A stretch of DNA of 64,000 nt, taken from contig OZ251535.1 of assembly GCA_965243165.1 (NCBI GenBank), positions 1,602,246 through 1,666,245 on the forward strand, given 5' to 3'. Both the position numbers and the translations under genes were made by a program. Below the pieces are notes generated by a model. The model made no database searches. It was not told the DNA's origin and saw nothing but the letters and a program-made list of their open reading frames with translations. This stretch comes from Candidatus Spongiisociaceae bacterium. GTDB lineage: Bacteria; Actinomycetota; Acidimicrobiia; Spongiisociales; Spongiisociaceae. This document shows positions 3,706 through 64,000 of this stretch, one piece after another (within the stretch, counting starts at the first letter, position 1; each line of letters opens with the position of its first letter).

Positions 3706-3779
3706 GACCGCACAGCAGGCAGGCGCAGCCCGAAAGAATCTTTGCCGATCGGGGGGCTTCCGCCCTCAGGGTATTCGAA

Positions 3780-4115: not shown

Positions 4116-4116
4116 C

Positions 4117-6360: not shown

Positions 6361-6362
6361 GG

Positions 6363-7598: not shown

Positions 7599-7639
7599 TC
7601 CGAGGGCGAAGGGCAGAGCACCTGTCCGGCGGCGGGGCT

Positions 7640-9243: not shown

Positions 9244-9319
9244 TTTCTAGCTCACACTTCGGTATCGAGGGCTGGTGTTCCTGCTCGGCACAGGATTGAT
9301 CAGGAGTCGACCGGCTCGA

Positions 9320-11306: not shown

Positions 11307-11403
11307 GCGCCTCCCCCCGGCGGGCCTGAAGAGGCGGTGATCCCGAAGGGGAGGGCGGGGCGGTTAGCATGGGCGCGCGCTCGGTATCGCGGAAAGGAAT
11401 CGA

Positions 11404-11856: not shown

Positions 11857-11892
11857 GGTTCGTCATGCTCAAGGCCTGATCGAAGCGGCCGG

Positions 11893-12339: not shown

Positions 12340-13790
12340 GCTAGTAGATCTAATAGATCTGCTGTGTCTTCTGACAGCTCGTTGGCGACCTCAAGGTACT
12401 CGTCTTCGGATATACCCCAGTCAGGCTCAATTATTTCTTGAGTGACCCGAACAGGTCCAGCAGATTGGGAGTGTTGGAACCTATATACAGCTATATCATC
12501 AATAGCAATGTGCTCAGTACCTGGATATGTATCAGTATTCTTATTTAGTTTATTCTTCAATTGCCCCCGCAGGATACAATTCGATAACTCATGAAGTAAT
12601 ATCGAACTGTGTGTTGCACATACCACCTTTATGCCCTGGTTGACCAGGCCGACCAAGACTCGGGCAACGAGTCGAATGGCCTCGGGATGCAAATGTGATT
12701 CTGGTTCATCGATGATGAGCAGATCGTTGGGTGATACGAGGTGTTCCATCCACATGGCTAGGGGAGCAAGGTCCGCTACCATTGAAGAAGCGCGATGGAC
12801 CGCGATCCTGTGTCCATCTTGTTGATATTCCAGGGTAGGGACCATATTCTCCGCTGATCCTGCCCGGATACTGCCCCCCATGACTTCTCTCAATAGAGTT
12901 TGTGTGCCAGTTGTATCGGATTTGTCATCTCTGCGGGATCTAGTCTGGGAGTGTGGTCGGCGCGAGCCTATTATATTCGCCAATGACGAGACGAAATCCA
13001 AGGCGACTCCACCGAGTGAGGAGTCAGGAATTTTGGACAAGCCAAATCGCTTTTTGTCGAGATCCAAGCGCAATTTTATCACATCGGTCCACGCATTGAG
13101 CAAACCTGATCTTCCGGCTGGCAGATAATGTGCCTTACCATTTAGGCCTATGCGGCGAAAAAACTCACTCCAGACCGTGCTTGTTATAAGAAAAGATATC
13201 TCCCGATTACGTATCCCTTTGTCTCCCTCCTTTTTACTCATATTCTGCCAAAACATGAACTCGGATCGGATGTAATTACCTGACTTGTCCAAAGTAAGAA
13301 ATTTGTCTGGCACTTTAAGCGGACGCAGGGATCCAGTTTCAGCATTTTTGAAAAGACAAGTTCTCGCTTTATCTATTAGATCTTGATGGAGTTCGACCTT
13401 TATTTCTGTTGGTTGGTCCCATCTTGTTATATCTCCTAGGTCTGGTACTCCAAAATATTCCAGTAGATAATTCTGGAGCTCATCCCCGGAGTTATTGAGT
13501 AGGTTATTGATCCAATAATTGGCTTTATCTTCTAGCTCAGACGGAAACTTAAATGGATACTCGGAAGCAGTCTGTGCTGCTCGCAATAGGAGCTCTATTT
13601 CATCATCATCTAGGGCGTCTAGCAAGCCATAGGGCTTTACTGCTTTGTGGGTTGCATAGATAGCCTGGGCAAGGTAGGTCTTGCCCGTATTGTTCTTTCC
13701 TATCAGCACAGTGAGAGGCTTCAGCTCGACGTCGGCGTGTTCGATAGGGCCGAGATTCTCGACCACGAGTCTGAGATTGGTTGCGCCCAT
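12336..13790 (-). CDS. AAA_21/ABC-type (OLD/PtuA/AriA-like) ATPase, candidate anti-phage defence ATPase
   Basis: Walker A LIGKNNTGKT. Walker B with the diagnostic LLIIDEPESHLHP. His-loop VCATHS. ATG at 13790 preceded by a ggaaggaaggga RBS (the track's 13808 start is a TTG). Low GC relative to its flanks. Confidence 0.8.
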   Translation of the reverse strand: MGATNLRLVVENLGPIEHADVELKPLTVLIGKNNTGKTYLAQAIYATHKAVKPYGLLDALDDDEIELLLRAAQTASEYPFKFPSELEDKANYWINNLLNNSGDELQNYLLEYFGVPDLGDITRWDQPTEIKVELHQDLIDKARTCLFKNAETGSLRPLKVPDKFLTLDKSGNYIRSEFMFWQNMSKKEGDKGIRNREISFLITSTVWSEFFRRIGLNGKAHYLPAGRSGLLNAWTDVIKLRLDLDKKRFGLSKIPDSSLGGVALDFVSSLANIIGSRRPHSQTRSRRDDKSDTTGTQTLLREVMGGSIRAGSAENMVPTLEYQQDGHRIAVHRASSMVADLAPLAMWMEHLVSPNDLLIIDEPESHLHPEAIRLVARVLVGLVNQGIKVVCATHSSILLHELSNCILRGQLKNKLNKNTDTYPGTEHIAIDDIAVYRFQHSQSAGPVRVTQEIIEPDWGISEDEYLEVANELSEDTADLLDLLA

Positions 13791-13862
13791 GTCCCTTCCT
13801 TCCGACAACAGCTTAGCCTGTCCTTGGGGCGTATTGGCTCTATGTCAGCCCGAACGCCCAGT

Positions 13863-14579
13863 TTATTGCGGAAGGCTGCGGATGGTCTCGAGGGCGATCC
13901 TCACCATGCCGTCGAAGGTGCGCTCCCGCTCGTCGGGGGAGGAGGCTTCGCCGGTGACGAGGTGGTCGGAGACGGTAACGACGGCCAGCGCCCGCGCCCG
14001 CTCCTCGGCGGCGATGGCGTACAGCCCGGCCGCTTCCATCTCCACCGCCAGCACCCCCATCCGCTGCCAGATCTCGAGGGCGTTGTCGTAGGTGTTGTAG
14101 AACAGGTCGGAGGTGTGGAGGTTGCCGACGCGGGCCTCGATGCCCAGCCGGCCGGCGGCGTCGGCGGCCGCCCGCAGCAGCCCGAAGTCGGCGGTGGGGG
14201 CGTAGTCCCATCCGTTGTAGCGCCGGCGGTTGACGGTCGAGTCGGTGCAGGCGCCGATGGCCAGGATCGCATCCTTCATCTTCACGTCGGGGGAGATGCC
14301 GCCGCAGGTGCCCACCCGGATGAGGTTCTTCACCCCGTAGGTGCGGATCAGCTCGGTGATGTAGATGGACGCCGACGGCACCCCCATGCCGGTGCCCATC
14401 ACAGACACCGGAACGCCCCGGTAGGAGCCGGTGAACCCCAGCATGTTGCGGACCGAGGTCACCTCCGCCGCGTCTTCGAGGAAGGCCTCGGCTATGTAGC
14501 GGGCGCGCAGCGGGTCGCCCGGCAGCAGGATCGACTCTGCGAACGCCCCTTCGGGGGCCGATATATGGGGGGTGGCCAC
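13863..14579 (-). CDS. deoD: Purine nucleoside phosphorylase, DeoD type
   Basis: 238 aa. Motif [12 protein letters not shown]...VGTCGG...MEAAGLY, hallmarks of the PNP/UDP family 1. Confidence 0.9.
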
Positions 14580-14695
14580 AGATTCCTCCTTCTCCTCGGC
14601 GGGCGGCTCGGGCTCGGGCGCCTCGGCCGGCCCCGTCTTCGTTCCACCATGTGGTACGGTTGCCCGCGAGTCTAGACCCGCCCCGGGGAGGCCGA

Positions 14696-15430
14696 ATGAG
14701 CAGCGTGCGGTCCATCGAGCGGGCCTTCGCGTTGCTCGAGGCCGTCTCGGTTTCCGAGCAGGGGGTCACCGGCCTGGCCGAACGGGCGGGCATTCCCAAG
14801 AGCACGGCGGCGCGGATCCTCAAAACCCTGGAAACGATGGGGGCGGTGGAGAGGGCGCAGGAGGGCGTCTACCGGATCGGGCCCAAGGTGTACGGGCTGT
14901 CCGCCGCCCGGAGCCGGTCGGCCGAGCTGCTGCACAAGGCCCGCCCCCGCCTCGAGATGCTGGCCAGGGTGCTGGGCGAGGACGCCGGGCTGGCGGTGCA
15001 GGACGGCAACCAGGTCCACTTCATCGCCCAAGAAGACGCCGACAACAACGTGGTGGTGCGGGACTGGACGGGGACGCTGCTCCCTATGTACGTGGTTCCT
15101 TCCGGCCTGGTCATCCTGGCCCACTGGCCGCCGGACCAGCTGGACCGCTACCTGAGGGAGAAGCTCAAGCCCTACACCCGGCGCACGGTTACGGATCCGG
15201 CGCTCATCCGCAAGCGCCTGAAACGCATCCGCGAGGAGGGGTGGGCGTGGGTCATCGAAGAGTTCGTGGAGGGCATCAACTCGGTCGCCTCCCCCGTCTA
15301 CGACGACCGCGGGCGGGTGCTGGCCGCCGTCCACGTGCACGGCCCTTCCTACCGCTTTCCGGGCCGGTCCTCCCAGGGGGCGATCGCGGCCGAGGTGGCC
15401 CGGGCGGCGGCGCAGGTTTCCTCCTACTGA
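14696..15430 (+). CDS. IclR-family transcriptional regulator
   Basis: N-terminal HTH (RAFALLEAV...[23 protein letters not shown]) and a C-terminal IclR effector domain. Confidence 0.85.
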
Positions 15431-15498
15431 CCGAGCATTCTCGGGTCCGCCCTCGTTCGGGGGGCGGGTTCGCGTCCGTTGCCGCGGGCGGAGGGCCG

Positions 15499-16053
15499 TC
15501 AGGGAGTGGAGTGCTTGCGGGCGGCGAACACCCGGCGGACCATCGGCTCGAAGAACTCCAACGGCAGCGGCTCGTAGTCCGGATCGAAGCAGTTCTGGTC
15601 GTAGCGGGCGCAGAACTCCACCGCATCCCCGTACCAGGGGTGGTCCTCGAAGACGTCGCGGGCGTTGCGGTCCCCGCCGAAGTGGTGGAAGTAGTAGTAG
15701 CCCTGGAACAGGCCGTGATGGCGGATGATCCAGTAGTTCTTCTCGGAGACGTAGGGCCGCAGGATGTCCGCCGCCGCCTGGCTGTGGTTGTAGGGGGAGA
15801 TCAGGTCGCCGATGTCGTGGAGCAGGCAGCACACCACGTACTCCTCGCTCCGCCCGTCCCGGTGGGCGCGGCTGGCCGACTGCAGGGCGTGTTCGAACCG
15901 GCTGATCCGGTAGCCGGTGTCCCCCTCGTTCCACTGCACCCACTCAAGCAGCCGGTCCACGTAGTCGGCGTGGAGGCCCTCCTCCAGGCGGGCGAGGAGC
16001 TCGTAGTCCTCCTTGGTGCCGTCTTCCATCCTGGTGAAAGAGACCTGTCGCAT
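15499..16053 (-). CDS. HD-domain phosphohydrolase-like protein
   Basis: 184 aa C-terminal segment of a long artefactual ORF. Motif HD...(CLLHDIGD) with His-rich motifs. ATG at 16053. Confidence 0.6.
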   Translation of the reverse strand: MRQVSFTRMEDGTKEDYELLARLEEGLHADYVDRLLEWVQWNEGDTGYRISRFEHALQSASRAHRDGRSEEYVVCCLLHDIGDLISPYNHSQAAADILRPYVSEKNYWIIRHHGLFQGYYYFHHFGGDRNARDVFEDHPWYGDAVEFCARYDQNCFDPDYEPLPLEFFEPMVRRVFAARKHSTP

Positions 16054-16197
16054 ATTCGCTCTCCGTGCTGGGTCCGGGCCGGCGCCGGGGGGCGGGAACG
16101 GCGGTTTCCCCTCGGCCTCGGCGCTTTCATCACTCAAGCGCCCGGCGGGGGTAGTATTCATTCCGCACAGGCCGGTTTCGCACCAGGAGTTTACAAC

Positions 16198-19089: not shown

Positions 19090-22000
19090 ATGGGCAACCC
19101 AGGTAGATCAGTTTCCCAGAGATGGGAAGGTCCTGATGGACCGCTCGGCGAGTACATCCGTAAGGAGACTCATAATACGTTAGAAGCGTATCGAAATCAA
19201 CCTAACTATGTTGATAGAGATGGCAAGGCTGAGGAATCCAAGGCAAAAGGTGGTTACGCTGGCCGTCAGTTGTTAGAGCTGGTTCAGAACAGCGCCGATG
19301 CTTTGGAAGGAACCAAAGGTGGACGTATAGAGGTGCATCTGGATCAAAATTATCTCTATTGTGCTGACAACGGCAATCCTATCGGCAAAGACGGTATAAC
19401 CGCTTTGATGTTTTCCTATCTGTCAACCAAACAAGGAGTGAACCAGATCGGCAGGTTTGGATTAGGTTTTAGATCGGTGCTAGAGATTACAGACAGTCCA
19501 GAATTCTTTTGCCGTGCGGGGTCCTTTGGTTTTTCTAGATCACGTGCCAAAGAAAAAATTGAAGACTTTTATCCCGATGCTCAATACTATCCTGTTTTGA
19601 ATTTGCCATTTCCGTTAGCACCTGAGCCAGAGTTCGAAAGTGATCCAATCCTGAAAGGACTTAGTACGTGGGCGATGAATATTGTTCGCCTTCCTTTGAA
19701 GCCAGGCGCGGGCGATGGTCTTATCAAACAGATAAGATCGTTTCCATCTGAATTGCTGTTATTCGTTGAGCATGTGAAGGAGATGAAGCTTTCAATGAAA
19801 GAATATTGTTCTAAGGTGACTCTTGAAAGAGTTGATGACTTATATCTTCTCCATAAGGATGATGATCACAGTCTTTGGAAACTTTTTGAGTGCATCTATG
19901 AGCTATCTGACGAGGCTTTAGAAGACGCGAAACCAGTTTATGAAGAGGACAGTGTCCTTATCACCTGGGCTGTACCAATTGATCGGATGAACGCTCCGAG
20001 TTATAAGAATTTTTGGATTTTCTTCCCTACGAAAACAGCAAGTCTTGTAGCAGGTATTCTCAATGCTCGCTGGAAGCCACATGAAGACCGTCATAACCTA
20101 CTATCAGGGGCTTATAATAAAGAACTTATTGATGACACGGCTGATCTTATTATCGACTATTTAGATCAGCTTTCCACTGATGATGATCCAGCTCAACATT
20201 TGGATGCCTTACCGCGCCGACTTGAATCCGGTGATAGTGCACTCACAAATCAACTCCGTGACAAGCTATATTCTGGTCTAGTAGAGCATGAGGTGGTTCC
20301 AGATCAGGATGGCCAATTGCAGAAGATTCGAGACATTTCATATCCGCCGATCAATCTGCCAGTAGAGGCACTAAATATGTGGTCCGATTGCAAGGTTCGA
20401 CCTTCAGAATGGCTCCATCATACGGCTCGTACTCGTACAAGATTCTCGGTTATAGAAAGGATATTCGAATTTGCTAAAAATGGTCGGAGTAGTTTGCTAT
20501 ATTCATATTTACAAATTGGAAGTTCCAGACATGTCCCGGTTTCTAGCCTATCCGAATGGTTGGAGGCATTGGTAAATACTGCTAGCTCGGAAGAAGATTC
20601 TGTTCACGCTTCAATAGTTGCTGTCCAGATTGCTGCTATATTGATTGACGATGATAAATGGCAGGACACAGAATTTGGTAATATCTTGCTTTCAGCTAGT
20701 AATAACTGGTGTCTTCTTGATGCAGATAGTCTCTTTTTGGGCGGAGAGGAGGAACATACAGATATGTCAAAAGCAAGCCTTGTGCATCCTCAATTGGAAT
20801 CCGATCCTGAAACCCTGAGAATCTTGCAAGAATATTTTCGATTTGATTCAATGAGCTCAGAATTAGCCTTCCGAAGAAAGGTTGAAGATCTGTACCAAAG
20901 GGGAGAATGGGAGAAACTTTGGACTATATCCCGAGATGCTAATGCATTGTGGTTACAGATTATTCAGGATCAGCCTTGCTGGTATAATGTTCTTCGGCTC
21001 CGTAGTGTGTCTGGTGAGTGGTATCGCTTTTCAGAGTTACTATTACCGGGATATATTGTGCCTAGTGATGGTAGTCGAGATGCCATAAATGCTATTGATA
21101 TAGAGTATCATCATCAAGACCTTGACCTTGTGCAAAAACTCGGCATGCCCGATAGACCGATAGAGAATTATGATTATAAAGAAATAGAATCTCGAGAGTA
21201 CAATAGGTATAAATATATTTGTTATAGACAATATCTTGACGAAGAATTCCTTTATTCACATCCACGAAGAAACTTGATGGAATTTGATGATCATATGGCG
21301 ATAGGTCCTCTTAAATTATTCGAATACCTGTCTGAAGAGGGTAATGCATTATACACAGAGGCAATCCTTGAATATGACAGCATATTTGAGCCTTGGATAT
21401 TAAGGTATAAAGGGAAATCTACAGAGTACCCCAGTAAGGAGTTTGACTCCCCAGCTATAAAAGCTCTGTTAGAGGATGGTCATATCAGAGTAGGTAATTA
21501 CGGTATTTCTAAACTCTCAGATGGACTAGGCATTAAACCAAAGTCTGAACATGTGAGACGTTGGCTTCTTGAGCACCGTAATTCTAGCCTCTTTCGCAAA
21601 GCTTTTGATATAGAGATAGTTCCAACTATTGAGTTGCTAGGCAAAAGCACGCCGGTTCTTTTAGTTGATGAATGGCCGGGATTAAAACAACATTTAAACC
21701 GTCTTGGATTATCAGACCTTGAATTGATACGGTGTAATCAAATTGGCTTTGATAGTAGCGGTTTTGAGCTAAGCTGTTGGGTAAAGGGAGATAATATATA
21801 TACTTTAGGTGGAGATGAAAGGGATGAACTCCAAGCGATAGTTCTAGAGATCAAGCTGTCGCTTACAGAATCCGAGATAACACAGATCATCTCTCGACAG
21901 ACGGCTGAGGATATCAAAGCAGCTCGCGCCAAAATCCGTAGTAAGTCAACGGATGCCGAACGGTTACTAGCCGCAGTGGGTGAAAGAGCATTGATACACG

Positions 22001-23541
22001 GACTTCCCGCGGCTTTAAGGCGGTACAGAGAGGAAGAAGATCAAGAAGCAGCTGGTATCAGGGCTGCTGAGGCAACTATAGCTATTTACGATGTCGGAGC
22101 TCTATGGGAATATCGAGACCTTCTCCAGGATTTAAGTCCACCAAGTAGATGGGCAGGAAGCCGGCCAGCAGTTGAATTCGTTAGATCGCTCGGGTTTAGC
22201 GAAGAATGGGCTGGACAATCTAGAAGAGGTCGTCCGCCATTTATTGAAGTTGACGGTCCATTTAATTTACCTAAGCTTCATGATTATCAGCGTAAGATAG
22301 CCAACAATCTGAGAGCGATGTTGCGACGAGATATTCTTGAAAGAAGACGCGGCCTCATAAGTCTGCCAACGGGGGCAGGTAAGACGCTCGTAGCAGTCCA
22401 AGCTATTGTTGAAGCAATACGCAACGATGAATATACGGGGGGCGTGCTTTGGATCGCCGATCGAGACGAGCTTTGTGAGCAGGCAGTAGAGGCATGGCGA
22501 CGAGTTTGGTCCAACATAGGAGTTGATGCGGCCCCTTTGCGTATTTCCAGATTATGGCAGGGTAATAAGAATCCTACACCAGTGGGCTTTCAGCATGTCA
22601 TCGTTGCATCTATACAAACACTGAATAGTCGGGTGGTCAGGCAATCTGAAGATAGTAGATTTCTTGAGGCCTTCAAGTTAGTGGTATTTGATGAAGCACA
22701 TCATTCAATTGCACCTAGCTATACACAGGTTATGGCTAAACTTGGATTGACCTTTAGGCGAAAAGAAGATGAACCCTTCTTGATCGGACTGACTGCTACA
22801 CCATACCGCGGGCACAATGAGGAGGAAACACAGCGTCTAGCTAAACGCTATGAGCAGAACAGACTAGATGCTGGGGCTTTTTCAAGTGCTTATGTAGATC
22901 ATTTTTCAAGTGCTTATGCAGATCAAATGACTAACCAACTGCAAGATACAAGAGTCTTGGCGTTCGCCGATCATGAAACTATTGAAGGAGGTGATTTTAC
23001 TCTCACTAAAGAAGCATTACAAGAAATGCTTGAAAAAGGAGTTGCTTGGCTCCCGCCAAGCTTTGAAATTGCGATGGGACTAGACCGTGATAGAACACGG
23101 CGTATTCTTAGGGCGTACGATGAACATATTCGCGGCCAAGGCTGGCCAACACTTATTTTTGCTACTTCAGTAGACCATGCTAGAACATTGGCTGCTCTGC
23201 TTAATGAAGCTGGAGTAACTGCAAGGTCAGTAGATGGAACTACCCCGCATGTGGTTCGTCGTAAAATTGTCAAAGATTTTAGGGCTGGTCAAATTGAGGC
23301 ACTAGTGAACTATAATGTGTTTACTGAGGGGTTTGATGCTCCGCAAACGCGGGCGATCATGGTAGCACGTCCTGTCTATAGCCCCAATCTATATTTCCAG
23401 ATGATCGGGCGAGGTTTACGCGGGCCAAAAAACGGCGGCAATGAAAGGTGCTTGATCCTCAACGTCAAGGACAACATTGTGAACTACGAGGAGAAGCTTG
23501 CTTTCACAGAGCTGGATTGGCTTTGGGCAGACGGACATTGA
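19090..23541 (+). CDS. Giant (1483 aa) fusion protein with an N-terminal MORC/sacsin-type GHKL ATPase, a ~700-aa uncharacterised middle region and a C-terminal DEAH-box SF2 helicase (ResIII-like); candidate single-gene defence/restriction protein
   Basis: Low GC (~42%) against ~69% flanks. N-terminal Bergerat-fold motifs LELVQNSADA...DNGNPIG...GRFGLGFRS. C-terminal helicase motifs: I (PTGAGKT), II (VFDEAHH), III (TATP), VI (QMIGRGLR). Confidence 0.8.
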   Translation: MGNPGRSVSQRWEGPDGPLGEYIRKETHNTLEAYRNQPNYVDRDGKAEESKAKGGYAGRQLLELVQNSADALEGTKGGRIEVHLDQNYLYCADNGNPIGKDGITALMFSYLSTKQGVNQIGRFGLGFRSVLEITDSPEFFCRAGSFGFSRSRAKEKIEDFYPDAQYYPVLNLPFPLAPEPEFESDPILKGLSTWAMNIVRLPLKPGAGDGLIKQIRSFPSELLLFVEHVKEMKLSMKEYCSKVTLERVDDLYLLHKDDDHSLWKLFECIYELSDEALEDAKPVYEEDSVLITWAVPIDRMNAPSYKNFWIFFPTKTASLVAGILNARWKPHEDRHNLLSGAYNKELIDDTADLIIDYLDQLSTDDDPAQHLDALPRRLESGDSALTNQLRDKLYSGLVEHEVVPDQDGQLQKIRDISYPPINLPVEALNMWSDCKVRPSEWLHHTARTRTRFSVIERIFEFAKNGRSSLLYSYLQIGSSRHVPVSSLSEWLEALVNTASSEEDSVHASIVAVQIAAILIDDDKWQDTEFGNILLSASNNWCLLDADSLFLGGEEEHTDMSKASLVHPQLESDPETLRILQEYFRFDSMSSELAFRRKVEDLYQRGEWEKLWTISRDANALWLQIIQDQPCWYNVLRLRSVSGEWYRFSELLLPGYIVPSDGSRDAINAIDIEYHHQDLDLVQKLGMPDRPIENYDYKEIESREYNRYKYICYRQYLDEEFLYSHPRRNLMEFDDHMAIGPLKLFEYLSEEGNALYTEAILEYDSIFEPWILRYKGKSTEYPSKEFDSPAIKALLEDGHIRVGNYGISKLSDGLGIKPKSEHVRRWLLEHRNSSLFRKAFDIEIVPTIELLGKSTPVLLVDEWPGLKQHLNRLGLSDLELIRCNQIGFDSSGFELSCWVKGDNIYTLGGDERDELQAIVLEIKLSLTESEITQIISRQTAEDIKAARAKIRSKSTDAERLLAAVGERALIHGLPAALRRYREEEDQEAAGIRAAEATIAIYDVGALWEYRDLLQDLSPPSRWAGSRPAVEFVRSLGFSEEWAGQSRRGRPPFIEVDGPFNLPKLHDYQRKIANNLRAMLRRDILERRRGLISLPTGAGKTLVAVQAIVEAIRNDEYTGGVLWIADRDELCEQAVEAWRRVWSNIGVDAAPLRISRLWQGNKNPTPVGFQHVIVASIQTLNSRVVRQSEDSRFLEAFKLVVFDEAHHSIAPSYTQVMAKLGLTFRRKEDEPFLIGLTATPYRGHNEEETQRLAKRYEQNRLDAGAFSSAYVDHFSSAYADQMTNQLQDTRVLAFADHETIEGGDFTLTKEALQEMLEKGVAWLPPSFEIAMGLDRDRTRRILRAYDEHIRGQGWPTLIFATSVDHARTLAALLNEAGVTARSVDGTTPHVVRRKIVKDFRAGQIEALVNYNVFTEGFDAPQTRAIMVARPVYSPNLYFQMIGRGLRGPKNGGNERCLILNVKDNIVNYEEKLAFTELDWLWADGH

Positions 23542-40454: not shown

Positions 40455-41702
40455 TCAGTAGAGGTGTCCTTCGAGGCCGAGCAGCCATAGGGTGAGGATG
40501 GTGAGGGCGAGGCCGGCTGCGGCGCAGATCGTCCAGTCGATCAGGCGGGCGGCGAGTCTTCTGCCGGTTTTGGCGGGCGGGCGGGTGGTGTTGCGGTTTG
40601 GTTGGCGGGGGTGGTCTGGGGTGACGGCGGTGCGGGTGATTTGGTCGTGCCAGCCGCGTCGTTGGGTGTTGAAGAGGGGGGAGGCGGCGGTGAGGAGGAA
40701 GATGGGTATTCCGGCTAGGGGGATGAGGAGGGGGAGGTGGAGGGCGGCCCATCTGGCGGTTGTGCGGGTCCATCGGGGGGTTTGTCTGCCGGGGGTGCGG
40801 ATGGTTTGGATTCGGGTGAGGCGTTTGCCGATCGTTCGTCCGAGGGCGGCGGTTGTCAGGGTTTCGTAGAGGAGGAAGGGCGCCAGGAACAGACCGGCTG
40901 CGGCCGGGTAGGCGAGGAGGATGAAGGCCAAGAGGTCGACTCCGTTCGTATCGCTTCCGGTGTCTTCGTCGTTGCCGCCGAGGCCGGTCCGCATCAGGAG
41001 TTGTTCCAGCAGCGGGTTGAGGACTGTGATGCTCACGTCGTTTGTGGTTCCGTCTCTTCCCGCCGGGATGCCGGCGCGGATGCGGTCCAGCAGGTCCGCT
41101 TTCTTGGCGGGGGTGTCGACCACATCATGGAGTGCGACGGCAACTTCGATCTGTCCGGTTGTGATGTCTGGGGAAGACGTTATACCTGTTACCTCTTCGT
41201 AGCCGGATATGATGTCGTGAACGATCTGATGGCGTTTGGTGAGGCCTGCTTCGGTGAATCCCCGGTTTTCGATGATTCGGATGTCACGCGGGAAGGCTCG
41301 GACGGCTTCAACTGCCTCGGCGGGCGCTGTTCCGGTGAAGGATACAAACCCATTCACGCCGTCTTCGATCCAAGAACCTGTAAAGTCTTCCGGAAACTTT
41401 TCCCTGATTTGGTTGACCAAATAGCCGAACGGGCTTTGCCAGGCGTAATTCTCGATTGCTTCTTCGAGCGAGATGCCTTCCTGTTCTGCCAGAAATTCCA
41501 GGTCGCGGCAACGTTCTCCTGGAATTATTCCGGCGGCCAGCTGTTCGATTGGGTCCACTTTGGTCAGGGTGGTGGTAGTGACCAGAGTTCCGTATACGGG
41601 TGTACAGGTCCATGCGTTGCCGGCAGTCGGCATTGTGAGCAGGGATACCGCCAGCATTCCCAGCATCCACCCTGCCAGTGAGCTGCGCGTTCGGGTTGTC
41701 AT
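40455..41702 (-). CDS. Membrane protein with an N-terminal secreted domain homologous to the S1 protease pro-region, fused to a C-terminal RDD-family membrane domain (cassette A, gene 3)
   Basis: Signal peptide MTTRTRSSLAGWMLGMLAVSLLTMPTAGNAW. Residues ~50-230 align with the pro-region of protease 42889-44223 (EQEGISLEEAIENYAWQ...AFPRDIRIIENRGFTEAGL). C terminus carries RDD motifs (LGRTIGKRL...RRGWHD). The ATG overlaps the upstream gene stop (ATGA). Confidence 0.75.
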   Translation of the reverse strand: MTTRTRSSLAGWMLGMLAVSLLTMPTAGNAWTCTPVYGTLVTTTTLTKVDPIEQLAAGIIPGERCRDLEFLAEQEGISLEEAIENYAWQSPFGYLVNQIREKFPEDFTGSWIEDGVNGFVSFTGTAPAEAVEAVRAFPRDIRIIENRGFTEAGLTKRHQIVHDIISGYEEVTGITSSPDITTGQIEVAVALHDVVDTPAKKADLLDRIRAGIPAGRDGTTNDVSITVLNPLLEQLLMRTGLGGNDEDTGSDTNGVDLLAFILLAYPAAAGLFLAPFLLYETLTTAALGRTIGKRLTRIQTIRTPGRQTPRWTRTTARWAALHLPLLIPLAGIPIFLLTAASPLFNTQRRGWHDQITRTAVTPDHPRQPNRNTTRPPAKTGRRLAARLIDWTICAAAGLALTILTLWLLGLEGHLY

Positions 41703-42844
41703 GGGCCGCCTCGGTGTGCTTCGGAGGTTGGAACGACGATAGCGCCGGCGGCTTTGTCGTGCCATCCGCGCCGTTGGGAGTCGAAGAGGGGGGAGGCGGC
41801 TGTCAGGAAGAAGATGAGTATTCCGATGATGGGGAGTGCCAGGAGGGGAAGGTAGATCACAATCCATCTGATGCTGGCTCTCTTCCATCCTGGAACTCGG
41901 CCGTTGCCGATGCACACCACTCGGGTCTGGGTGAGAATTTTTCCGATCGTTTCTCCTCGAAGAGCAATCAGCGGCAACTCGTAGATGACCACCGAGGCTA
42001 AGACAGCAACGAAACCTATATGAAGTATAGATATAGCTATCCAGAGGTCGGATTCAGGTAACAGGCTCTGAACAGTAATCTGGAATGGTTCTATAAACGC
42101 AATACCTTTGTATATATCTATAAAAGTAGATCCTTCAAGTTCCAACAATCCTATCGACCATATCACAAGAGTGATCCCAGCTATTGAATATAGCAACCAG
42201 TCAATAGTTCGGGACAGGAACCGCTTATGCGTGGGAACTGAAAGAGAAACATTGTCCTGGATGGCCGGTGTTTTAGATGCTTGGGTAACAATTGTGCCCG
42301 CGATCTTGTCATGCCATCCGCGTCTTTGAGGGTCGAAGAGGGGGGATATAACTGTCAAGAGGAAAATTATTATTCCGATTATAGGAACCAGAAGAGGAAG
42401 ATATATTATCGCCCATCGCACGCTGGACATCTTCCATCCCGGAACGCGGCCGTTACTGTTATGAGTTACTTTGATTCCCATCATTATCTTCCCGATAGTC
42501 TGACCCCTGGCGGCGGTCATCGGAAGTTCATATAGAAGCGATGGAACCAGTAACAGGATTACACAGGCTAAGTGTATAGCAAAAATGGATAACCAAGGTT
42601 GAAAGTCAGGTACAGCATAAGTCTCAAACCATAATCTATAGGATTGTGAAGGAACTGAATCTCCACCTCCCAAGCCCACATAAGTTCTTGTAAAGCCGGT
42701 TACCCAGATTAGAGAGGACATCCCCCAGATCAGAGAGGACATCCAAAGCCAGATGCCTATAACAACATATAGTAACCAATCAATACATCGAGCTAATATG
42801 CGCCCTATCGATTCAGATTGATTGATACCGATAAGGCTCGCCAT
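41699..42844 (-). CDS. Tandem RDD-domain integral membrane protein (cassette A, gene 2)
   Basis: Two RDD units (GQTIGKIMMGIKV...RRGWHDKIAGT and GETIGKILTQTRV...RRGWHDKAAG) with multiple TM helices. Low GC. Confidence 0.75.
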   Translation of the reverse strand: MASLIGINQSESIGRILARCIDWLLYVVIGIWLWMSSLIWGMSSLIWVTGFTRTYVGLGGGDSVPSQSYRLWFETYAVPDFQPWLSIFAIHLACVILLLVPSLLYELPMTAARGQTIGKIMMGIKVTHNSNGRVPGWKMSSVRWAIIYLPLLVPIIGIIIFLLTVISPLFDPQRRGWHDKIAGTIVTQASKTPAIQDNVSLSVPTHKRFLSRTIDWLLYSIAGITLVIWSIGLLELEGSTFIDIYKGIAFIEPFQITVQSLLPESDLWIAISILHIGFVAVLASVVIYELPLIALRGETIGKILTQTRVVCIGNGRVPGWKRASIRWIVIYLPLLALPIIGILIFFLTAASPLFDSQRRGWHDKAAGAIVVPTSEAHRGGP

Positions 42845-42888
42845 TAGTTACTCCTTTCCTTGTGTTATTTTGTGCTTCATAATTGTGT

Positions 42889-44223
42889 TTATGAAGTAGC
42901 TACTGTCCAGCCTGGGAAGGCATCATCAATGTGATGAACCGGTGTAAAAAGATCCCGACGTTTTAAGCCAAATATCCAGTTGCCACTGTGAATACCGTAT
43001 GCAGTGGTTCCATGAAACCAAGGGCCTCCAGAATCACCTCCTCTGGCCTTTCTATTATGCATAGCAACCAGCTTTCGTCCTTCAGGATAGTATACGCTGC
43101 CCCTGTATACTCTGTCTACAGTGTAGCCGCTAGATTTCCCATATTTTCGCAACCATTGGCCTTCCATTGGTACTCCAGTAGATTCAACAAACTGATAATC
43201 GTTTGGTCCGCTGTCGTAACGAAATTCGTTCACAAGGGTATAGCCAGAAGGAACAGAATGTCTCTGAAGGTCCCCCCATTCTCCTTGATGTTCTATCCCC
43301 CAACCTAGCCGAAGATAAATAGAGCCGTCAATTAATCTTTGATTATTGCCACAGTGTCCTGCAGTAGAAATATGTCTCCTTCCACTCGTATGTTCAAGAA
43401 CAAAGCCCACTGTGCATGTGCTGAGATGCATTCCTCCTGTTACATCCTCATCTCCCCCGCCAGGAGTGGAGGTTACAATATTGAAAAGAACGTCTTTATT
43501 AGTCCCAGTACTGGCAACACTCCCGACTGGAAGGTTAGCTTGGAGAAGATCAAGCATAGATGTCTTCTCCTCAGGAGTAGATTCTGAGTTTTTTAGTACT
43601 ACTTCCACGGTTAGTAGTCCAGTTCCGATATCGTAGGTTGAGGCGGCTGTATCTATATTATCGTTGCCTATCACGCTATTATGAACTGAATCGAGACGTT
43701 GTCTAAGATCGGCTTCGGTGAAGCCCCGGTTCTCGATGATCTGCACGGCACGCGGGAAGGCCCGGATGGAACTCGCAGCACCGGCGGGCGCTGTTCCGGA
43801 GAAGGCCACCCAAGCTGTCAGATCTTCTTCGATCCGGGCTCCGGCGAAATCACCCGGATAATCTTGGCGGATTTCGTTGACCAAATAGGCGAGCGGGCCT
43901 TGCCAGGCGTACTTCTCGATCGCTTTGTCGAGTGAGATGCCTTCCTGTTCGGCCTGCCAGGTCAGCTGCTCGCGAAGCGCTTCGGATATTTCTCCCGCCG
44001 CGAACCGGGAAACCGGGTCGCTCGGGTTGCTCGGTGCCTTTTCGTCGGTTCCCCCTCCGCCGGAGGGTGCGCCGGTGCTGGGGGTTCCGAACCCGCCGTC
44101 GTCGGATCCGGGGGGTGAAACGGCCTGAACGGTCGAGGGGACGACCAGCGCCAACGCCAGCAACAGCAGGATGCCCGCCCTCGCCTTCGTGCGCCTCCGA
44201 ACTCTGCGTCTGCGGATCATCAT
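42889..44223 (-). CDS. Secreted S1-family serine protease, alpha-lytic protease/streptogrisin-like (S1E), with an N-terminal pro-region (cassette A, gene 1)
   Basis: Signal peptide, then a ~200-aa pro-region. Catalytic His in TAGHCG and Ser in GDSGGPWF. Paired Cys residues. Confidence 0.85.
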   Translation of the reverse strand: MMIRRRRVRRRTKARAGILLLLALALVVPSTVQAVSPPGSDDGGFGTPSTGAPSGGGGTDEKAPSNPSDPVSRFAAGEISEALREQLTWQAEQEGISLDKAIEKYAWQGPLAYLVNEIRQDYPGDFAGARIEEDLTAWVAFSGTAPAGAASSIRAFPRAVQIIENRGFTEADLRQRLDSVHNSVIGNDNIDTAASTYDIGTGLLTVEVVLKNSESTPEEKTSMLDLLQANLPVGSVASTGTNKDVLFNIVTSTPGGGDEDVTGGMHLSTCTVGFVLEHTSGRRHISTAGHCGNNQRLIDGSIYLRLGWGIEHQGEWGDLQRHSVPSGYTLVNEFRYDSGPNDYQFVESTGVPMEGQWLRKYGKSSGYTVDRVYRGSVYYPEGRKLVAMHNRKARGGDSGGPWFHGTTAYGIHSGNWIFGLKRRDLFTPVHHIDDAFPGWTVATS

Positions 44224-51701: not shown

Positions 51702-52576
51702 CGGCCGCCTCCTGTTTGCCGATTGTTCGTCCGAGGGCGGCGGCTGCCAGGGTTTCGTAGGAGGAAGAGCGTCAGGAGCAGGCTGGCGGCGGCTAAGCAG
51801 ACGAGGAGTAACAGCACCAGGGGGTCAACGCCGCGGCCGACTTCGCTTTCACCATCCGGCATACCTAGCTCGGGTCCGCCTTCGATGCGATCGACAACCT
51901 TCAGGTCGATGTCATCTATGGTTCCGTCTCTTCCCGCCGGTATTTCAGCGCGGATGCGGTTTAGTATGGTTGCTTTCTTGGCGGGGGTATCGATTGAATC
52001 ATGCAGTACGATAGTAACTTGGATCTGTCCGGTAGTGATGGAGTAAGTCGATATGTAATCTATCACCTCTTCGTAGCTGGACGCGATTCCGGAAACAATC
52101 CCGTGGCGTTTGTTGAGGGTTGCTTCGGTGAATCCCCGGTTTTCGATGATTCGGATGGGGTGTGGGAAGGCTCGGATGGCTTCAACGGCCTCGGCGGGCG
52201 CTGTTCCGGTGAAGGATACAAAACCATTCACGTCGTTCCTGATCCAAGAGCCTGTAAAGTCTTCGGGATATTTTTCCCTGATTTCGTTGACTAAATAGGA
52301 GAACGCGTCTTGCCAGGCGTACCTCTCAATGGATTCTTCGAGCGAGATGCCTTCCTGTTCTGCTATCAATTCCAGGTCTTGGCAAAGGTATCCAGAGATT
52401 ATTCCGGCGGCCAGCTGTTCAACTGGGTCGGCCTTTGTCAGGGTAGTATTGGTGTCTGGAGTGTCGGATACGGTTGTACAGGTCCATGCGTTGCCGGCGG
52501 TCGGCGCTGCGAGCAGGGAAACCGTCAGTATTCCCAGCAACCGCCATGCCAATGAACTGCGGGCTCGGGTTTTCAT
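51698..52576 (-). CDS. Pro-region-like secreted protein, a C-terminally truncated paralog of the pro-region-RDD fusions (cassette B, gene 3); likely a degenerate copy
   Basis: The N-terminal 230 aa are ~75% identical to 40455..41702. The TM region ends in the out-of-frame tail ...RNPGSRRPRTNNRQTGGGR. The alternative frame at 51712-51760 still encodes AAALGRTIGK (RDD motif), so a frameshift plus deletion is inferred. Confidence 0.6.
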   Translation of the reverse strand: MKTRARSSLAWRLLGILTVSLLAAPTAGNAWTCTTVSDTPDTNTTLTKADPVEQLAAGIISGYLCQDLELIAEQEGISLEESIERYAWQDAFSYLVNEIREKYPEDFTGSWIRNDVNGFVSFTGTAPAEAVEAIRAFPHPIRIIENRGFTEATLNKRHGIVSGIASSYEEVIDYISTYSITTGQIQVTIVLHDSIDTPAKKATILNRIRAEIPAGRDGTIDDIDLKVVDRIEGGPELGMPDGESEVGRGVDPLVLLLLVCLAAASLLLTLFLLRNPGSRRPRTNNRQTGGGR

Positions 52577-53730
52577 GAGCTGCCCCTCGACTGTTGGCGG
52601 CCTTGAAGCCCTTCGGAGGTTGGAACGACGATGGTGCCTGCGGCTTTGTCGTGCCATCCGCGCCGTTGGGGGTCGAAGAGGGGGGAGGCGGCTGTCAGAA
52701 GGAAGACCAGTATTCCGATGATGGGTAGTGCGAGGAGGGGAAGGTAGAGCACCATCCATCTTATGCTGGCTTTCTTCCATCCGGGAACTTGGCCGTTGTC
52801 GATGCATACTACTTGGGTCTTGGTGAGTATTTTTCCGATTGTTTCTCCTCGAAGAGCAGTCAGCGGCAACTCGTAGATAACTACCGAGATGAAGACAATG
52901 GTGAAGGAATTATGAATTCCAAATACAGCCAACCAGAAGTCGGATTCATATATCATCCGTCTTATACCCTCAATCTGATAAGAGATGCTCAATGGTTCTA
53001 TGGCAACCCTGCTATTGTATAGGTCTATGAAGGTTGATCCTTCGAGTTCTAGCAATCCAATTGACCATATCAGAAAGGTAACTCCAGCTATTGAATATAG
53101 CAGCCAGTCGATAGTTCGGGCCAGCAACCGTTTGTGTGCACCGGTTGGAAAGAGAAGTGATGTTCTTGATTCTTTGTCTTTACTTACTGGAGCGACGAGT
53201 GTGCCAGCGATTTTGTCGTGCCAGCCGTGTCGTTGAGAGTTGAACAGCGGTGATGCGGTTGTCAGGAGGAAAATCAGTATTCCGATTATTGGAATCAGAA
53301 GAGGAAGGTAGAGTATCGCCCATCTTATGCTGGATCTTGTCCATCCTGGAAAGTGGCCCTTATTGTTGTGGGTTACTTTGATTCCCATCAGTATCTTCCC
53401 GGCTGTTTGCCCTCTCGCGGCGATCAGCGGTAGTTCATATAGAAGAGATGGAAGTAGTAATAGTATTACACCGGCCAGATGTATAGCAAAGATAGATGTC
53501 CAGGGTTGGAGGTCAGGTATCGCATAGGTTTCGATCCATGTTACCGGAGGCGGCGGAGGGTCAGGTTCAACCTGATAAGTACTCCGTTTTGTTCCCGTCA
53601 AGAGTGCTATCCAATCTTGAGATGATAATAAAAGAGTTATGCCTGTAATAACATAGATCGTCCAATCGATGCACCGAGCTAATACGCGCCTCGTTGATTC
53701 AGATTGGTTGATCTTTATGATGCTTGCCAT
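52573..53730 (-). CDS. Tandem RDD-domain membrane protein (cassette B, gene 2), paralog of 41699..42844
   Basis: Start MASIIKINQSES, matching MASLIGINQSES in the paralog. Two RDD units (GQTAGKILMGIKV...RHGWHDKIAG and GETIGKILTKTQV...RRGWHDKAAG). Confidence 0.7.
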   Translation of the reverse strand: MASIIKINQSESTRRVLARCIDWTIYVITGITLLLSSQDWIALLTGTKRSTYQVEPDPPPPPVTWIETYAIPDLQPWTSIFAIHLAGVILLLLPSLLYELPLIAARGQTAGKILMGIKVTHNNKGHFPGWTRSSIRWAILYLPLLIPIIGILIFLLTTASPLFNSQRHGWHDKIAGTLVAPVSKDKESRTSLLFPTGAHKRLLARTIDWLLYSIAGVTFLIWSIGLLELEGSTFIDLYNSRVAIEPLSISYQIEGIRRMIYESDFWLAVFGIHNSFTIVFISVVIYELPLTALRGETIGKILTKTQVVCIDNGQVPGWKKASIRWMVLYLPLLALPIIGILVFLLTAASPLFDPQRRGWHDKAAGTIVVPTSEGLQGRQQSRGSS

Positions 53731-53779
53731 TTTCTTTTTGCCCTCCTCGTCTCCTGCTATTACCTTTATAGCCGATGGT

Positions 53780-55129
53780 TTATGAAGTAGCGACATCCCA
53801 ACCAGGAAAGGCGTCTTCAATATGATGGACCGGAGTAAAAAGGCTTCTCCTTTTACTGGCTGGACGCCCTATATCATTTTTGTAGCCAAAATGAATACCA
53901 TAGGCGGTGTCTCCCCGGAACCATGGACCCCCAGAATCTCCTCCTTGAGTTGTATGACTAAACATTGCTACTAGATGTTCTGCTATACCGGCATTAACAA
54001 CACCTCTGTAGACCCAATCTGATTTATAACCTGTGGACATTCCATAATTTAATAATACTTGACCTTCCACTGGGACTCCGGTTGACAAGATCGGCCGAGA
54101 GTGCCGCCCGCTGCTATTATAACGAATACTATTTGTCAGAGTGTGTCCTGAAGGTACGGAATGCCGTTGAAGGTCTCCCCATCGTCCTTCATGTTCGTCT
54201 TCAAAAGTCAATGTTATCCTAATATTGCCGTCCCTCAATGTCTGATTGTTGGAACAGTGGCCTGCAGTGGAGATATTCCTCTCCCCGTTTGAGTTCTCAA
54301 GAACAAACCCTGCTGTGCACCGGCTGAGATGTGTCCCGCCTCGTATGTCGGATTCAGCTCCGCCCGCTATGTCACTTACGACATTCAGAGTCACGTCGCT
54401 GGTTCCAACGTTGGCAACGCTTCCGATCGGGAGTTCGGCGCGTAGAAGATCCGACAGTGCTTTCTTCTGTGCGGGGGTGTCAGCCGAATCCTCGATTGCG
54501 ACGGTTACCTCCAACCGGCCGGTAGCGAGGTCGTAGGTCGAGACAGCGTCTTCGACCTTGTCGTTTGCCATCACGCTGTCATGAACGGCGGTGAGGCGCC
54601 GATTGAGGCCAGCTTCGGTGAAACCCCGGTTCTCGATGATTTGCACGGCGCGCGGGAAGGCGCGGATGGAGCTCGCAGCACCGGCGGGCGCCGTTCCGGA
54701 GAAGGCCACCCAGGCTGTCAGATCTTCTTCGATCCGGGCTCCGGCGAAATCATTCGGATAATCTTGGCGGATCTCGTTGACCAGATAGGCGAGGGGGCCT
54801 TGCCATGCGTACTTCTCAATCGCTTTGTCGAGTGAGATGCCTTCCTGTTCGGCCTGCCAGGTCAGCTGTTCGCGAAGGGCTTCGGAGATCTCTCCCGCCG
54901 CGAACCGGGCAACCGGGTCACTGGGGCTGCTCGGCGCCTCTTCGTTGCCTCCCCCTCCGCTGGCTGGTACACCGGCGCCGGGGCCGGGGGTTCCGAACCC
55001 GCCGTCGTCGGATCCGGGGGGTGAAGCGGCCTGAACGGCCAAGGGGAGGACCAGCGCCAGCGCCAGCAACAGCAGGATGCCCGCCCTCGCCTTCGTGCGC
55101 CTCCGAGCTCTGCGTCTGCGGATCATCAT
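53780..55129 (-). CDS. Secreted S1E (alpha-lytic/streptogrisin-like) serine protease with pro-region (cassette B, gene 1), paralog of 42889..44223
   Basis: Signal peptide. Pro-region ~90% identical to the cassette A protease. The mature domain has diverged (TAGHCSNN, GDSGGPWF). Confidence 0.85.
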   Translation of the reverse strand: MMIRRRRARRRTKARAGILLLLALALVLPLAVQAASPPGSDDGGFGTPGPGAGVPASGGGGNEEAPSSPSDPVARFAAGEISEALREQLTWQAEQEGISLDKAIEKYAWQGPLAYLVNEIRQDYPNDFAGARIEEDLTAWVAFSGTAPAGAASSIRAFPRAVQIIENRGFTEAGLNRRLTAVHDSVMANDKVEDAVSTYDLATGRLEVTVAIEDSADTPAQKKALSDLLRAELPIGSVANVGTSDVTLNVVSDIAGGAESDIRGGTHLSRCTAGFVLENSNGERNISTAGHCSNNQTLRDGNIRITLTFEDEHEGRWGDLQRHSVPSGHTLTNSIRYNSSGRHSRPILSTGVPVEGQVLLNYGMSTGYKSDWVYRGVVNAGIAEHLVAMFSHTTQGGDSGGPWFRGDTAYGIHFGYKNDIGRPASKRRSLFTPVHHIEDAFPGWDVATS

Positions 55130-61625: not shown

Positions 61626-62081
61626 ATGCGGGCGCTCATCCAGCGGGTAGATCATGCTTCGGTGTCGGTGGACGGCGAGGTGACGGGCCGGGTGGGGAAC
61701 GGTCTGCTGGTTCTGGTGGGGGCGGGCCGGGCGGATACCGAAACCGACGCCCGCGCTCTGGCCGCCAAGGTGGCGGGGCTGCGCATCTTCCCCGACGACG
61801 GCGGAAGGTTCAACCTGTCCCTGCGGGACGTTGGGGGCGCAGTGCTGGTGGTCAGCCAGTTCACCCTGTACGCCGACGTGCGCCGGGGCCGCCGCCCCAG
61901 CTTCACCGGGGCGGCCCGCCCGGAGCAGGCCGAACGCCTGGTGGACGAGTTCGCCCGGGCGGTCGAGGCGGAAGGCGTCGAGGTGGCCGAGGGCCGGTTC
62001 GGCGCCATGATGCAGGTAGACCTCCGCAACAACGGCCCCTTCACCCTCATGGTCGAGACCGTGGACGGCCGGGTTGTATGA
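61626..62081 (+). CDS. dtd: D-aminoacyl-tRNA deacylase
   Basis: N terminus MRALIQRV. Motifs SQFTL and NGPFT. Confidence 0.9.
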
Positions 62082-62301
62082 ACCTGCCGCAGCCTGGGCT
62101 TTCACATCCGATTTGCCCGCCTTCCCCGTTCTGATATGTGCAACCTGTCGAATCTGTCATACCCCCCTCGTACCTTGAACATGGTGAAACTACGACCCCG
62201 CCCTCCAAGTCTGGGGCGGCTTCCAGGCTGGGGCCGAAGTCGGTGATGTGTCCGCCGCGGGTGATATCGTCCCTGCCGGGCGCCGCAGGAAAGGAGAGGC
62301 C

Positions 62302-64000
62302 GTGAAAGAAGTGTCCTTCAACGAGAGGTTCGCGGACGCCCTGCGGATCGCGTCCGGTTGGGATGACAGCTGGATCGTGAAGGACAGCGCCGATGTGGGG
62401 CTGTTCGTCGAGGAACGCAGATCTCCTGACGTGTTGCTGATCTTGCCCAACTCACCTCCGATAGTGGTCGAATGCAAGTTCGATGACGGGTCGGGCGACC
62501 CGGTGGAAGACGCCAAGAAAGAATTGGGGCTCACCATTTCCCAGGCGGGGGCGGGCGCATCCGGACGGAATATCCACGCCGCGGCGGCGGTGTATTACCC
62601 GCCGGGAGCCCGACAATGGGGAGATCAGGAAGTCGTAGCCAGGTTCGTTGACAGCGGCGAGCAAGTGCGGTGGAAGTTCATCTCGGGAAGAGGCGCCGAC
62701 TACTGCGCTCTCTGGCCCGAGCGGGGCTGGTTGACCGGTTCTGTATTCGACTTTGCTGACAGTATCGCTAAAACGGCGACAGACGCCGAGATAATTGATT
62801 TGGCCGCCGGGGGCGCCGCGAGCTGCATCTTGGCGGCGGCGGCTTCGCTCGATGCGGTGCTGGGCAACCACCCCGCCGAGAAGGAACGGATCAGCGCTCT
62901 GATGGGTTCACCGGACGATATCAGAATCGGATTGCAGGTGGCGTGTCTGGTGTGGTTCGATTCGATGCTCATCTTGAACGAACTGGGGAGAAGAAACCCG
63001 CGATTCGGCAGCACCGCATCCTGCCGGGATGAGGTCGGCAAAATCTTCGCTCAGAAGATAAAGGAAGAGTGGGGAAAGGTGCTCGCGGTCAACTATGACT
63101 CGGTGTTCCGCCCTGCCTTCGATGCGTTTCCTCAGGTTTTGCCGCCGGCCTCCTTCTGTGACACCTTTACAACCCTCGCGAACGCGGTCGACGAGGCAGA
63201 ACAATACTTGCTGGGAGAAACTGCGGACTTGGCGGGGGGAATCTTCGCCCGAGTCATGGACGACGGGCAGCGGAAGAACTCGGCTGCTTTCTACACCCGC
63301 CCCGAAGCGGCTGAATATCTGACCTATCTTACCCTTCCTGATGTTGCGGAACTTTCCGATGATTGGCGGAGTTGGAGGATCGCCGACTTCGCCTGCGGGA
63401 CAGGCACCCTCCTGCGGGCGGGGTACCGGCGGCTGCAACAGTTCGCATCCGGCCGCGGGGCGCCGCTCGACGCCTACCACCGAGCGATGATAGAGGAGGG
63501 GTTGTGCGGGGTGGATGTTGCCCCTATCGCTGTCCACCTCACCGCCGCCGGGATCGTGGGCCTGCGGCCGGAAGTCGATTACAACCCGACCAACATCGGG
63601 CTGGCGAGGATCGGAGCAACAGACGGAGGGAACGGTGGGGTCTTTACCGGGTCGGTCGAGCTGTTGGGGGAGCATGAAACTCGGCTGTTCACCGACAACT
63701 ACGACACCCAGAAGGGGACGGAGATTGAGAACGGCCAGGGCGTTTCCGTCTTGGCAGCCGAAGACGGCTCCTTCGACGCGGTGTTGATGAACCCCCCTTA
63801 CTCCCGGACCGGCGGGGGGCAGAAGCTGTTCGACCTGTCGGGCATTTCCCCCTCGGACCGGCGGGCGGCGCAGAAGCGGGTCTGGAAGCTGGCCCAAGGC
63901 ACCTGCGGTGACGGCAATGCCGGTTTGGCTTCGGTGTTCGCGGCGATAGGCGACCGCAAGCTCAAAGACGAGATGCGCATGGGTCTGGTGCTCCCGTTGA
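62302..64000 (+). CDS. Type IIG/IIL restriction-modification enzyme, 3'-truncated by the window end. N-terminal PD-(D/E)xK endonuclease and gamma-class N6-adenine methyltransferase (MmeI/BREX-PglX-like). Not in the supplied ORF track
   Basis: Open frame from a GTG at 62302 (RBS aggaaaggagagg) to the window end, with no stop over >560 codons. Endonuclease motif PD...VVECK. MTase motif I DFACGTGTLL. MTase motif IV VLMNPPY. GC is slightly below the flanks. Confidence 0.65.
   Translation, partial: MKEVSFNERFADALRIASGWDDSWIVKDSADVGLFVEERRSPDVLLILPNSPPIVVECKFDDGSGDPVEDAKKELGLTISQAGAGASGRNIHAAAAVYYPPGARQWGDQEVVARFVDSGEQVRWKFISGRGADYCALWPERGWLTGSVFDFADSIAKTATDAEIIDLAAGGAASCILAAAASLDAVLGNHPAEKERISALMGSPDDIRIGLQVACLVWFDSMLILNELGRRNPRFGSTASCRDEVGKIFAQKIKEEWGKVLAVNYDSVFRPAFDAFPQVLPPASFCDTFTTLANAVDEAEQYLLGETADLAGGIFARVMDDGQRKNSAAFYTRPEAAEYLTYLTLPDVAELSDDWRSWRIADFACGTGTLLRAGYRRLQQFASGRGAPLDAYHRAMIEEGLCGVDVAPIAVHLTAAGIVGLRPEVDYNPTNIGLARIGATDGGNGGVFTGSVELLGEHETRLFTDNYDTQKGTEIENGQGVSVLAAEDGSFDAVLMNPPYSRTGGGQKLFDLSGISPSDRRAAQKRVWKLAQGTCGDGNAGLASVFAAIGDRKLKDEMRMGLVLPL

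Follow-up and report, generated by a model that had tools for sequence, protein, structure and literature searches.

A frame at the edge of a 64-kb window from a Candidatus Spongiisociaceae contig probably encodes the first part of a single-chain type IIG/IIL restriction-modification enzyme from an uncurated family

What is encoded by the long open frame that runs off the end of this stretch of DNA, and which of the known restriction or methylation systems does its product resemble? The window, i.e. the whole stretch that was analyzed, comprises 64,000 nucleotides of contig OZ251535.1 from a Candidatus Spongiisociaceae bacterium. Our analysis indicates that the frame at 62302-64000 on the forward strand probably specifies the first 566 residues of a single-chain type IIG/IIL restriction-modification enzyme of ~973 amino acids (aa). 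Translation from the GTG at 62302 gave 566 sense codons and zero stops up to the window edge, as the original prediction had read it, and the sequence motifs named in that prediction were recovered on translation: the PD-(D/E)xK nuclease motif as PDVLLILPNSPPIVVECK at aa 42-59, and methyltransferase (MTase) motifs I and IV as DFACGTG at aa 362-368 and NPPY at aa 497-500. The frame is missing from the list of open reading frames (ORFs) supplied with the window because the list omits any ORF that extends past the end of its source; the antisense ORFs overlapping 62302-64000 had no family support. The start of the gene is arranged as follows.

62288-62299 (+): putative ribosome-binding site, Shine-Dalgarno-like GGAAAGGAGAGG, read from the sequence; it ends 2 nt before the start codon, with the core AGGAG 5 nt upstream
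62302-64000 (+): 5' part (566 of ~973 codons) of the predicted restriction-modification enzyme gene; open frame, 86% identity and no indels compared with the homologue P0001

An ATG occupies the position corresponding to the GTG at 62302 in a syntenic metagenomic locus (L001), and the family alignment begins at 62302; a second in-frame GTG lies at 62248 and the closest upstream in-frame stop at ~62184. The guanine-plus-cytosine (GC) fractions at codon positions 1, 2 and 3 of the frame were 0.63, 0.48 and 0.76, a coding signature. One search with the 566-aa fragment returned 338 homologues, and a profile run against 1.84 billion cluster representatives (50% identity) found 6,487 proteins at E<=1e-3 and 2,033 diverged homologues at E<=1e-30; the 338 homologues and 2,033 representatives place the frame far beyond chance. 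The best 150 profile matches were nearly all full length. Nearly all of the 338 homologues were ~950-990 aa long and were either unnamed or annotated as 'hypothetical protein' or 'N-6 DNA methylase'. Residue conservation was counted after alignment of 253 full-length members with hmmalign.

The closest homologue, P0001 (973 aa, 86% identity), is encoded directly downstream of dtd in L001. This protein was used as a proxy for the C-terminus beyond the window edge because of its identity to the window protein, the same dtd directly upstream and a gapless alignment across the visible 1,699 nt. Its domain boundaries were placed at ~1-147, 148-305, 306-610, 612-840 and 842-963, and the corresponding features of the window were assigned as follows.

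62302-62742 (+): predicted PD-(D/E)xK nuclease domain, N-terminal, aa 1-147; candidate catalytic residues E3, D43, E57 and K59
62425-62478 (+): PD-x13-ExK motif PDVLLILPNSPPIVVECK (P42 D43 ... E57 C58 K59), aa 42-59
62743-63216 (+): all-helical connector between nuclease and MTase, aa 148-305; helices at 148-301 in the AlphaFold2 model of the orthologue
63217-64000 (+): visible part of a gamma-class N6-adenine MTase domain, aa 306 on; the remainder lies past the window edge
63283-63303 (+): AAFYTRP, putative motif X ahead of motif I, with an FYT(P) element like that of gamma-class MTases; A328, Y331 and T332 invariant
63385-63405 (+): MTase motif I, DFACGTG (S-adenosylmethionine binding), aa 362-368; D362, G366 and G368 invariant in 253/253
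63790-63801 (+): MTase motif IV, NPPY (catalytic, adenine-N6), aa 497-500; N-P-P invariant in 253/253, with Y (154) or F (99) as the fourth residue

Full-length P0001 was modelled with AlphaFold2 from an 88-sequence alignment, giving a mean predicted local distance difference test score (pLDDT) of 90.1 and a predicted template modelling score (pTM) of 0.92. A Foldseek search of the Protein Data Bank (PDB) with this model returned BpuSI as the top match (E=2e-17, full-length alignment), followed by CamA, BrxX/PglX, LlaBIII, M.BseCI and DrdV. The N-terminal domain adopted a PD-(D/E)xK nuclease fold (pLDDT 94) with BpuSI among its top matches, and the remainder of the chain matched N6-adenine DNA MTases with a TaqI-type recognition domain as well as BpuSI, MmeI, DrdV and PglX. 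The region at ~612-840 of P0001 aligned with the target-recognition domains (TRDs) of CamA, M.TaqI and MmeI, so that recognition domain, nuclease and MTase share one polypeptide, the fusion that defines type IIG/IIL enzymes. Judging from the P0001 model, a beta-rich TRD (~612-840) and a C-terminal helical bundle (~842-963) are expected in the window protein past the window edge.

Comparison with characterised enzymes sharpened this assignment. The type IIG enzyme RM.BpuSI (PDB 3s1s) has the same domain order and a helical spacer (PMC3185434) at the same position, with 12-16% sequence identity. BpuSI requires the companion methyltransferases M1 and M2 from its operon (PMC3185434), whereas the window family has no conserved MTase partner. 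The domains of the type IIL enzyme MmeI (PDB 5hr4) have been published as 1-155, 156-300, 301-620, 621-825 and 826-919, with a helical spacer at 156-300 (PMC4833311), and the boundaries of P0001 nearly coincide with them. Sequence membership of the MmeI family, which was originally defined by full-length similarity at E<1e-20 (PMC2731913), was not found: Pfam MmeI_N, MmeI_hel, MmeI_TRD and MmeI_C gave no match, MmeI_Mtase, with its cut-off of 27 bits, matched weakly at 13.5-21.9 bits (P0014, E=0.04; P0038, E=1e-4), and MmeI was absent from the matches of the PDB sequence search. DrdV, another type IIL enzyme (PDB 7lo5), shares ~10% identity. The gamma-class enzymes CamA, M.BseCI and M.TaqI, which carry a TaqI-type TRD, correspond to the MTase part only and lack the N-terminal nuclease and helical connector. 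The layout of type ISP enzymes (LlaGI/LlaBIII), in which a helicase-like ATPase motor separates nuclease and MTase, was not found either; at that place lies a helical bundle of ~155 residues with no ATPase profile hits. The earlier assignment to type IIG/IIL stands on the predicted nuclease fold, the family-wide invariance of motifs I and IV and a domain order as in BpuSI and MmeI. Its comparison to an MmeI-like/BREX-PglX-like arrangement held in part: the domain order is that of MmeI, sequence membership of the MmeI family fails, and the likeness to PglX is limited to the MTase and recognition folds.

To define the genomic context of the family, 80 loci from species-representative genomes, with ~170 immediate flanking genes, were surveyed. 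No recurring partner family was identified across the 80 loci, and 132 of the ~170 flanking genes were singletons or rare. The gene thus occurs as an independent unit in widely varying surroundings, and the lack of a conserved partner indicates that its product functions by itself, like the MmeI-type (type IIL) enzymes. The largest neighbour clusters, those of an ABC ATPase, a short-chain dehydrogenase, an enolase-like protein and an NADH-dehydrogenase subunit, were rejected as partners; these are generic housekeeping genes at variable distances. A companion MTase gene, the absence of which characterises type IIL systems, did not recur in the 80 loci, and the only other MTase gene in L001 belongs to the same family. 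The synteny of the window was shared only with L001 and one further locus (L002), and the sequence past base 64000 probably continues as in L001. In L001, the orthologue (9050-11971) is followed by a gene for an unrelated, acidic 396-aa protein, a convergent paralogue and UvrD/PD-(D/E)xK helicase-nuclease genes. The paralogue (13270-16173, reverse strand; 967 aa) is located 1.3 kb beyond the orthologue, within a lower-GC segment of ~7 kb between dtd and the UvrD/PD-(D/E)xK pair; it is 27% identical over the full length and keeps all motifs including E-A-K. The 396-aa gene was discarded as a partner, as its acidic, secreted-looking product had no Pfam or PADLOC hit and the gene occurs only in L001 and L002. 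Upstream in the window lie dtd, which is a housekeeping gene outside the system, and then an acyltransferase and other housekeeping genes, syntenic with L001.

61629-62081 (+): dtd (D-Tyr-tRNA deacylase); Pfam Tyr_Deacylase E=7e-55, 98% aa identity to L001

The dtd gene forms the left boundary of the lower-GC insert, and the 220-bp intergenic region between it and the frame is 96.4% identical to L001. A scan of 61900-62500 detected no promoter or terminator, a result that is uninformative for a high-GC organism, and an Rfam scan of the window found nothing.

Composition and divergence set the gene apart from its surroundings. Its GC fraction is 0.62 compared with 0.716 in the 6 kb upstream; likewise, the 9-16 kb segment of L001 that carries both paralogues has a GC fraction of 0.55-0.67 between flanks of 0.70-0.74. 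The gene product is 86% identical between the window and L001, whereas the flanking proteins are 97.5-98% identical. For the gene, dN (nonsynonymous divergence) was 0.078 and dS (synonymous divergence) 0.274, with no indels, compared with 0.009 and 0.067 for dtd. The dN/dS ratio of 0.28 indicates purifying selection on the gene, and the combination of lower GC, faster divergence and purifying selection fits a functional, horizontally exchanged defence gene.

We propose that the recognition and MTase domains would close around a short, asymmetric site in DNA, with its target adenine flipped out. In host DNA this adenine would be methylated, with modification predicted on a single strand; in unmethylated foreign DNA the tethered nuclease would cut a fixed distance away, probably once two enzyme molecules have paired. 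Because no companion MTase is conserved beside the gene, the host would most likely be protected through methylation by the enzyme itself, the strategy of MmeI-type (type IIL) enzymes.

Several observations weigh against reading the frame as a restriction-modification enzyme. Pfam Eco57I (PF07669) matched the window fragment at E=8e-4 and 20.0 bits, below its cut-off of 25.3, and P0001 at 21.9 bits, also under this gathering cut-off; more distant members passed it (P0005, 36.2 bits; P0006, 39.1 bits; P0014, 28.8 bits), and also passed the N6_Mtase cut-off, which makes the window protein borderline for the Eco57I domain. NCBIfam matches were far below cut-off, and PADLOC matches were weak (MTase_II, 2e-7; REase_MTase_IIG, the best type IIG model, 7e-7 over ~100 residues). 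Among solved structures we recognised no member of the family, and profile matches to PDB sequences were marginal: LlaBIII (E=4e-3), BrxX (8e-3) and DrdV (0.011). When the N-terminal domain alone was searched, with 21 members against Pfam and as a profile against PDB sequences, nothing significant was found; the nuclease assignment is therefore drawn from the predicted fold and the conserved acidic residues. The catalytic activities of this large family are predicted from motifs and models. In addition, the recognition domain and stop codon lie outside the window, and the window's own copy could be disrupted past 64000. Finally, 85% of the family has E, S or A in place of the canonical lysine of the nuclease, and the nuclease chemistry across the family is not textbook. 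In characterised MmeI enzymes the conservation of D, E and K is complete (PMC2731913), whereas only 15% of the window family has the lysine.

A first alternative is an orphan (stand-alone) adenine DNA methyltransferase, in which a dead N-terminal nuclease-like domain would serve DNA binding or regulation only and methylation would occur without restriction. Across the 253 members E3, D43 and E57 were essentially invariant, while position 59 was occupied by E in 118 (47%), S in 76 (30%), K in 37 (15%) and A in 20 (8%). The window protein and its clade keep the canonical lysine and with it the full E3/D43/E57/K59 set, which argues against an orphan enzyme. Even in the clades without K59, D43 and E57 are invariant, pointing to a metal-binding site under selection, and R74 and R137 are near-invariant, which suggests compensation and not decay. 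Conservation of both arginines reaches 92-97% in the E and S subfamilies, and the A group combines an invariant R74 with 80% conservation of R137. In the K59 clade the constraint is relaxed, to 76% for R74 and 54% for R137, and the window protein itself has E74 and L137. This pattern may reflect a relocated basic residue. Lower GC, fast divergence and varied contexts also fit a defence gene, and we consider the orphan methyltransferase unlikely.

In a second alternative, the protein would supply the methyltransferase of a multi-gene defence system (BREX PglX-like, DISARM-like or MADS-like) with its partners past the window edge. PglX/BrxX (PDB 8c45, 9ewz) lacks a nuclease domain and functions only as part of a BREX operon, which comprises about six genes. 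BREX genes (BrxA/B/C, PglZ, BrxL) were absent from the upstream part of the window and from the L001 region past the orthologue, and none recurred in the 80 loci. Downstream of the orthologue L001 likewise carries no DISARM or MADS partners, and the UvrD/PD-(D/E)xK genes there are of housekeeping type; moreover, no neighbour family recurs in the 80 loci. The NCBIfam BREX_1/2_MTaseX models matched at E=0.25-0.31 and ~9 bits against cut-offs of 400-500 bits. We regard such a component as very improbable. An MTase acting on RNA or protein instead of DNA is conceivable from motif IV, since NPPY-type enzymes also include HemK/PrmC, METTL5 and rRNA/tRNA methyltransferases; we give this reading almost no weight. 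The single-chain restriction-modification enzyme remains our preferred explanation.

Members of the family also offered a view of how the specificity of the proposed restriction-modification enzyme may vary. The chromosome of a Rhodothermales metagenome-assembled genome (MAG; OZ242302.1, locus L015) carries three tandem copies that are 96-99% identical (2137-5118, 5476-8460 and 9977-12976). Their differences are confined to two C-terminal patches, at P0001 positions ~715-744 (A) and ~830-853 (B), and combine as a mosaic, with A1-B1 in copy 1, A1-B2 in copy 2 and A2-B2 in copy 3. Family-wide, patch positions were more variable than other C-terminal positions (2.63 versus 2.08 bits, permutation P = 1e-4), and variable positions are flanked by invariant scaffold, e.g. 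GPTH..IGH.......GAF and GGRAW...AF.LW.NSTLG. The family alignment contained no sharply hypervariable TRD block, the variability residing in single positions within the conserved scaffold. The pattern is as would be expected for specificity determinants on a conserved scaffold, and we take it as a hint in that direction. It resembles the MmeI family, in which changes at a few TRD residues alter specificity (PMC4833311). The mosaic suggests recombination between copies that would yield several specificities; an assembly artefact in this MAG could also have produced it. Tentatively, and with less confidence than doubt, we extend these observations to the family as a whole: it may form a separate, as yet uncurated branch of single-chain restriction-modification enzymes that counts diverged members in the thousands, many from sponge symbionts, in which the nuclease active site was remodelled by replacement of the canonical lysine in 85% of members with R74/R137 taking over its role, two small C-terminal patches that can be exchanged independently set specificity, and tandem arrays such as that of L015 generate several specificities by recombination.

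Further observations concern the distribution and integrity of family members. The best 80 genomic hits span many phyla, and in a raw tally many came from sponge-named lineages (Poribacteria, Ca. Poriferisodalis and Ca. Spongiisociaceae), with others from MAG series that resemble host-associated marine projects; the closest genome hit, at 49% identity, is an Acidimicrobiia sponge symbiont. A near-full-length member is present on the Nitrosospira plasmid pNRS527-2 (H1/L084), beside type IV secretion system genes; it spans the origin of the record and hence has no listed annotation. Tailed viruses of Halorubrum and Haloferax (H6-H15) encode homologues of the connector plus methyltransferase only (query aa 251-676, 28% identity), annotated as 'type IIG restriction modification enzyme'. 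At five loci (L019, L023, L041, L055 and L056) the family copies are split into at least two neighbouring ORFs on the same strand, as a result of either frameshifts in pseudogenes or errors in long-read assembly.

Elsewhere in the window, low-GC islands of 41-50% GC encode a 1,483-aa protein (19090-23541, forward strand) with a C-terminal ResIII/DEAD/SNF2 helicase and a sub-threshold match to a sacsin domain (PF25794) in its N-terminal part, and a 490-aa AAA_15/AAA_21 ATPase (12336-13808, reverse strand). These are probably the other two defence-type islands to which the original prediction referred in counting at least three such loci in 64 kb. Two paralogous two-gene cassettes on the reverse strand (41699-44223 and 52573-55129) each encode an RDD-family membrane protein (381 and 415 aa) and a protein of 444 or 449 aa with a weak trypsin-like C-terminus. 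They lie in islands of ~47-49% GC within a genome of ~70% GC, and the same RDD gene and low-GC segment were found at the left end of L001.

Read as a restriction-modification enzyme, the frame at 62302 is a defence gene of an ordinary, known kind whose family is uncurated and uncharacterised, and the understanding of how such enzymes work is unchanged by these findings. The window gains a credible, horizontally acquired defence gene that was missed by the ORF track at its edge. If the two-patch model of specificity is true, the family could serve, like MmeI, as a scaffold on which new recognition specificities are engineered. Enrichment of restriction-modification genes is a recurring theme in sponge-symbiont genomes. 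Since the family scores under or close to the cut-offs of Pfam and NCBIfam and matches PADLOC models weakly, it is probably under-counted in censuses of defence systems, and this under-counting would matter most for the genomes of sponge symbionts.
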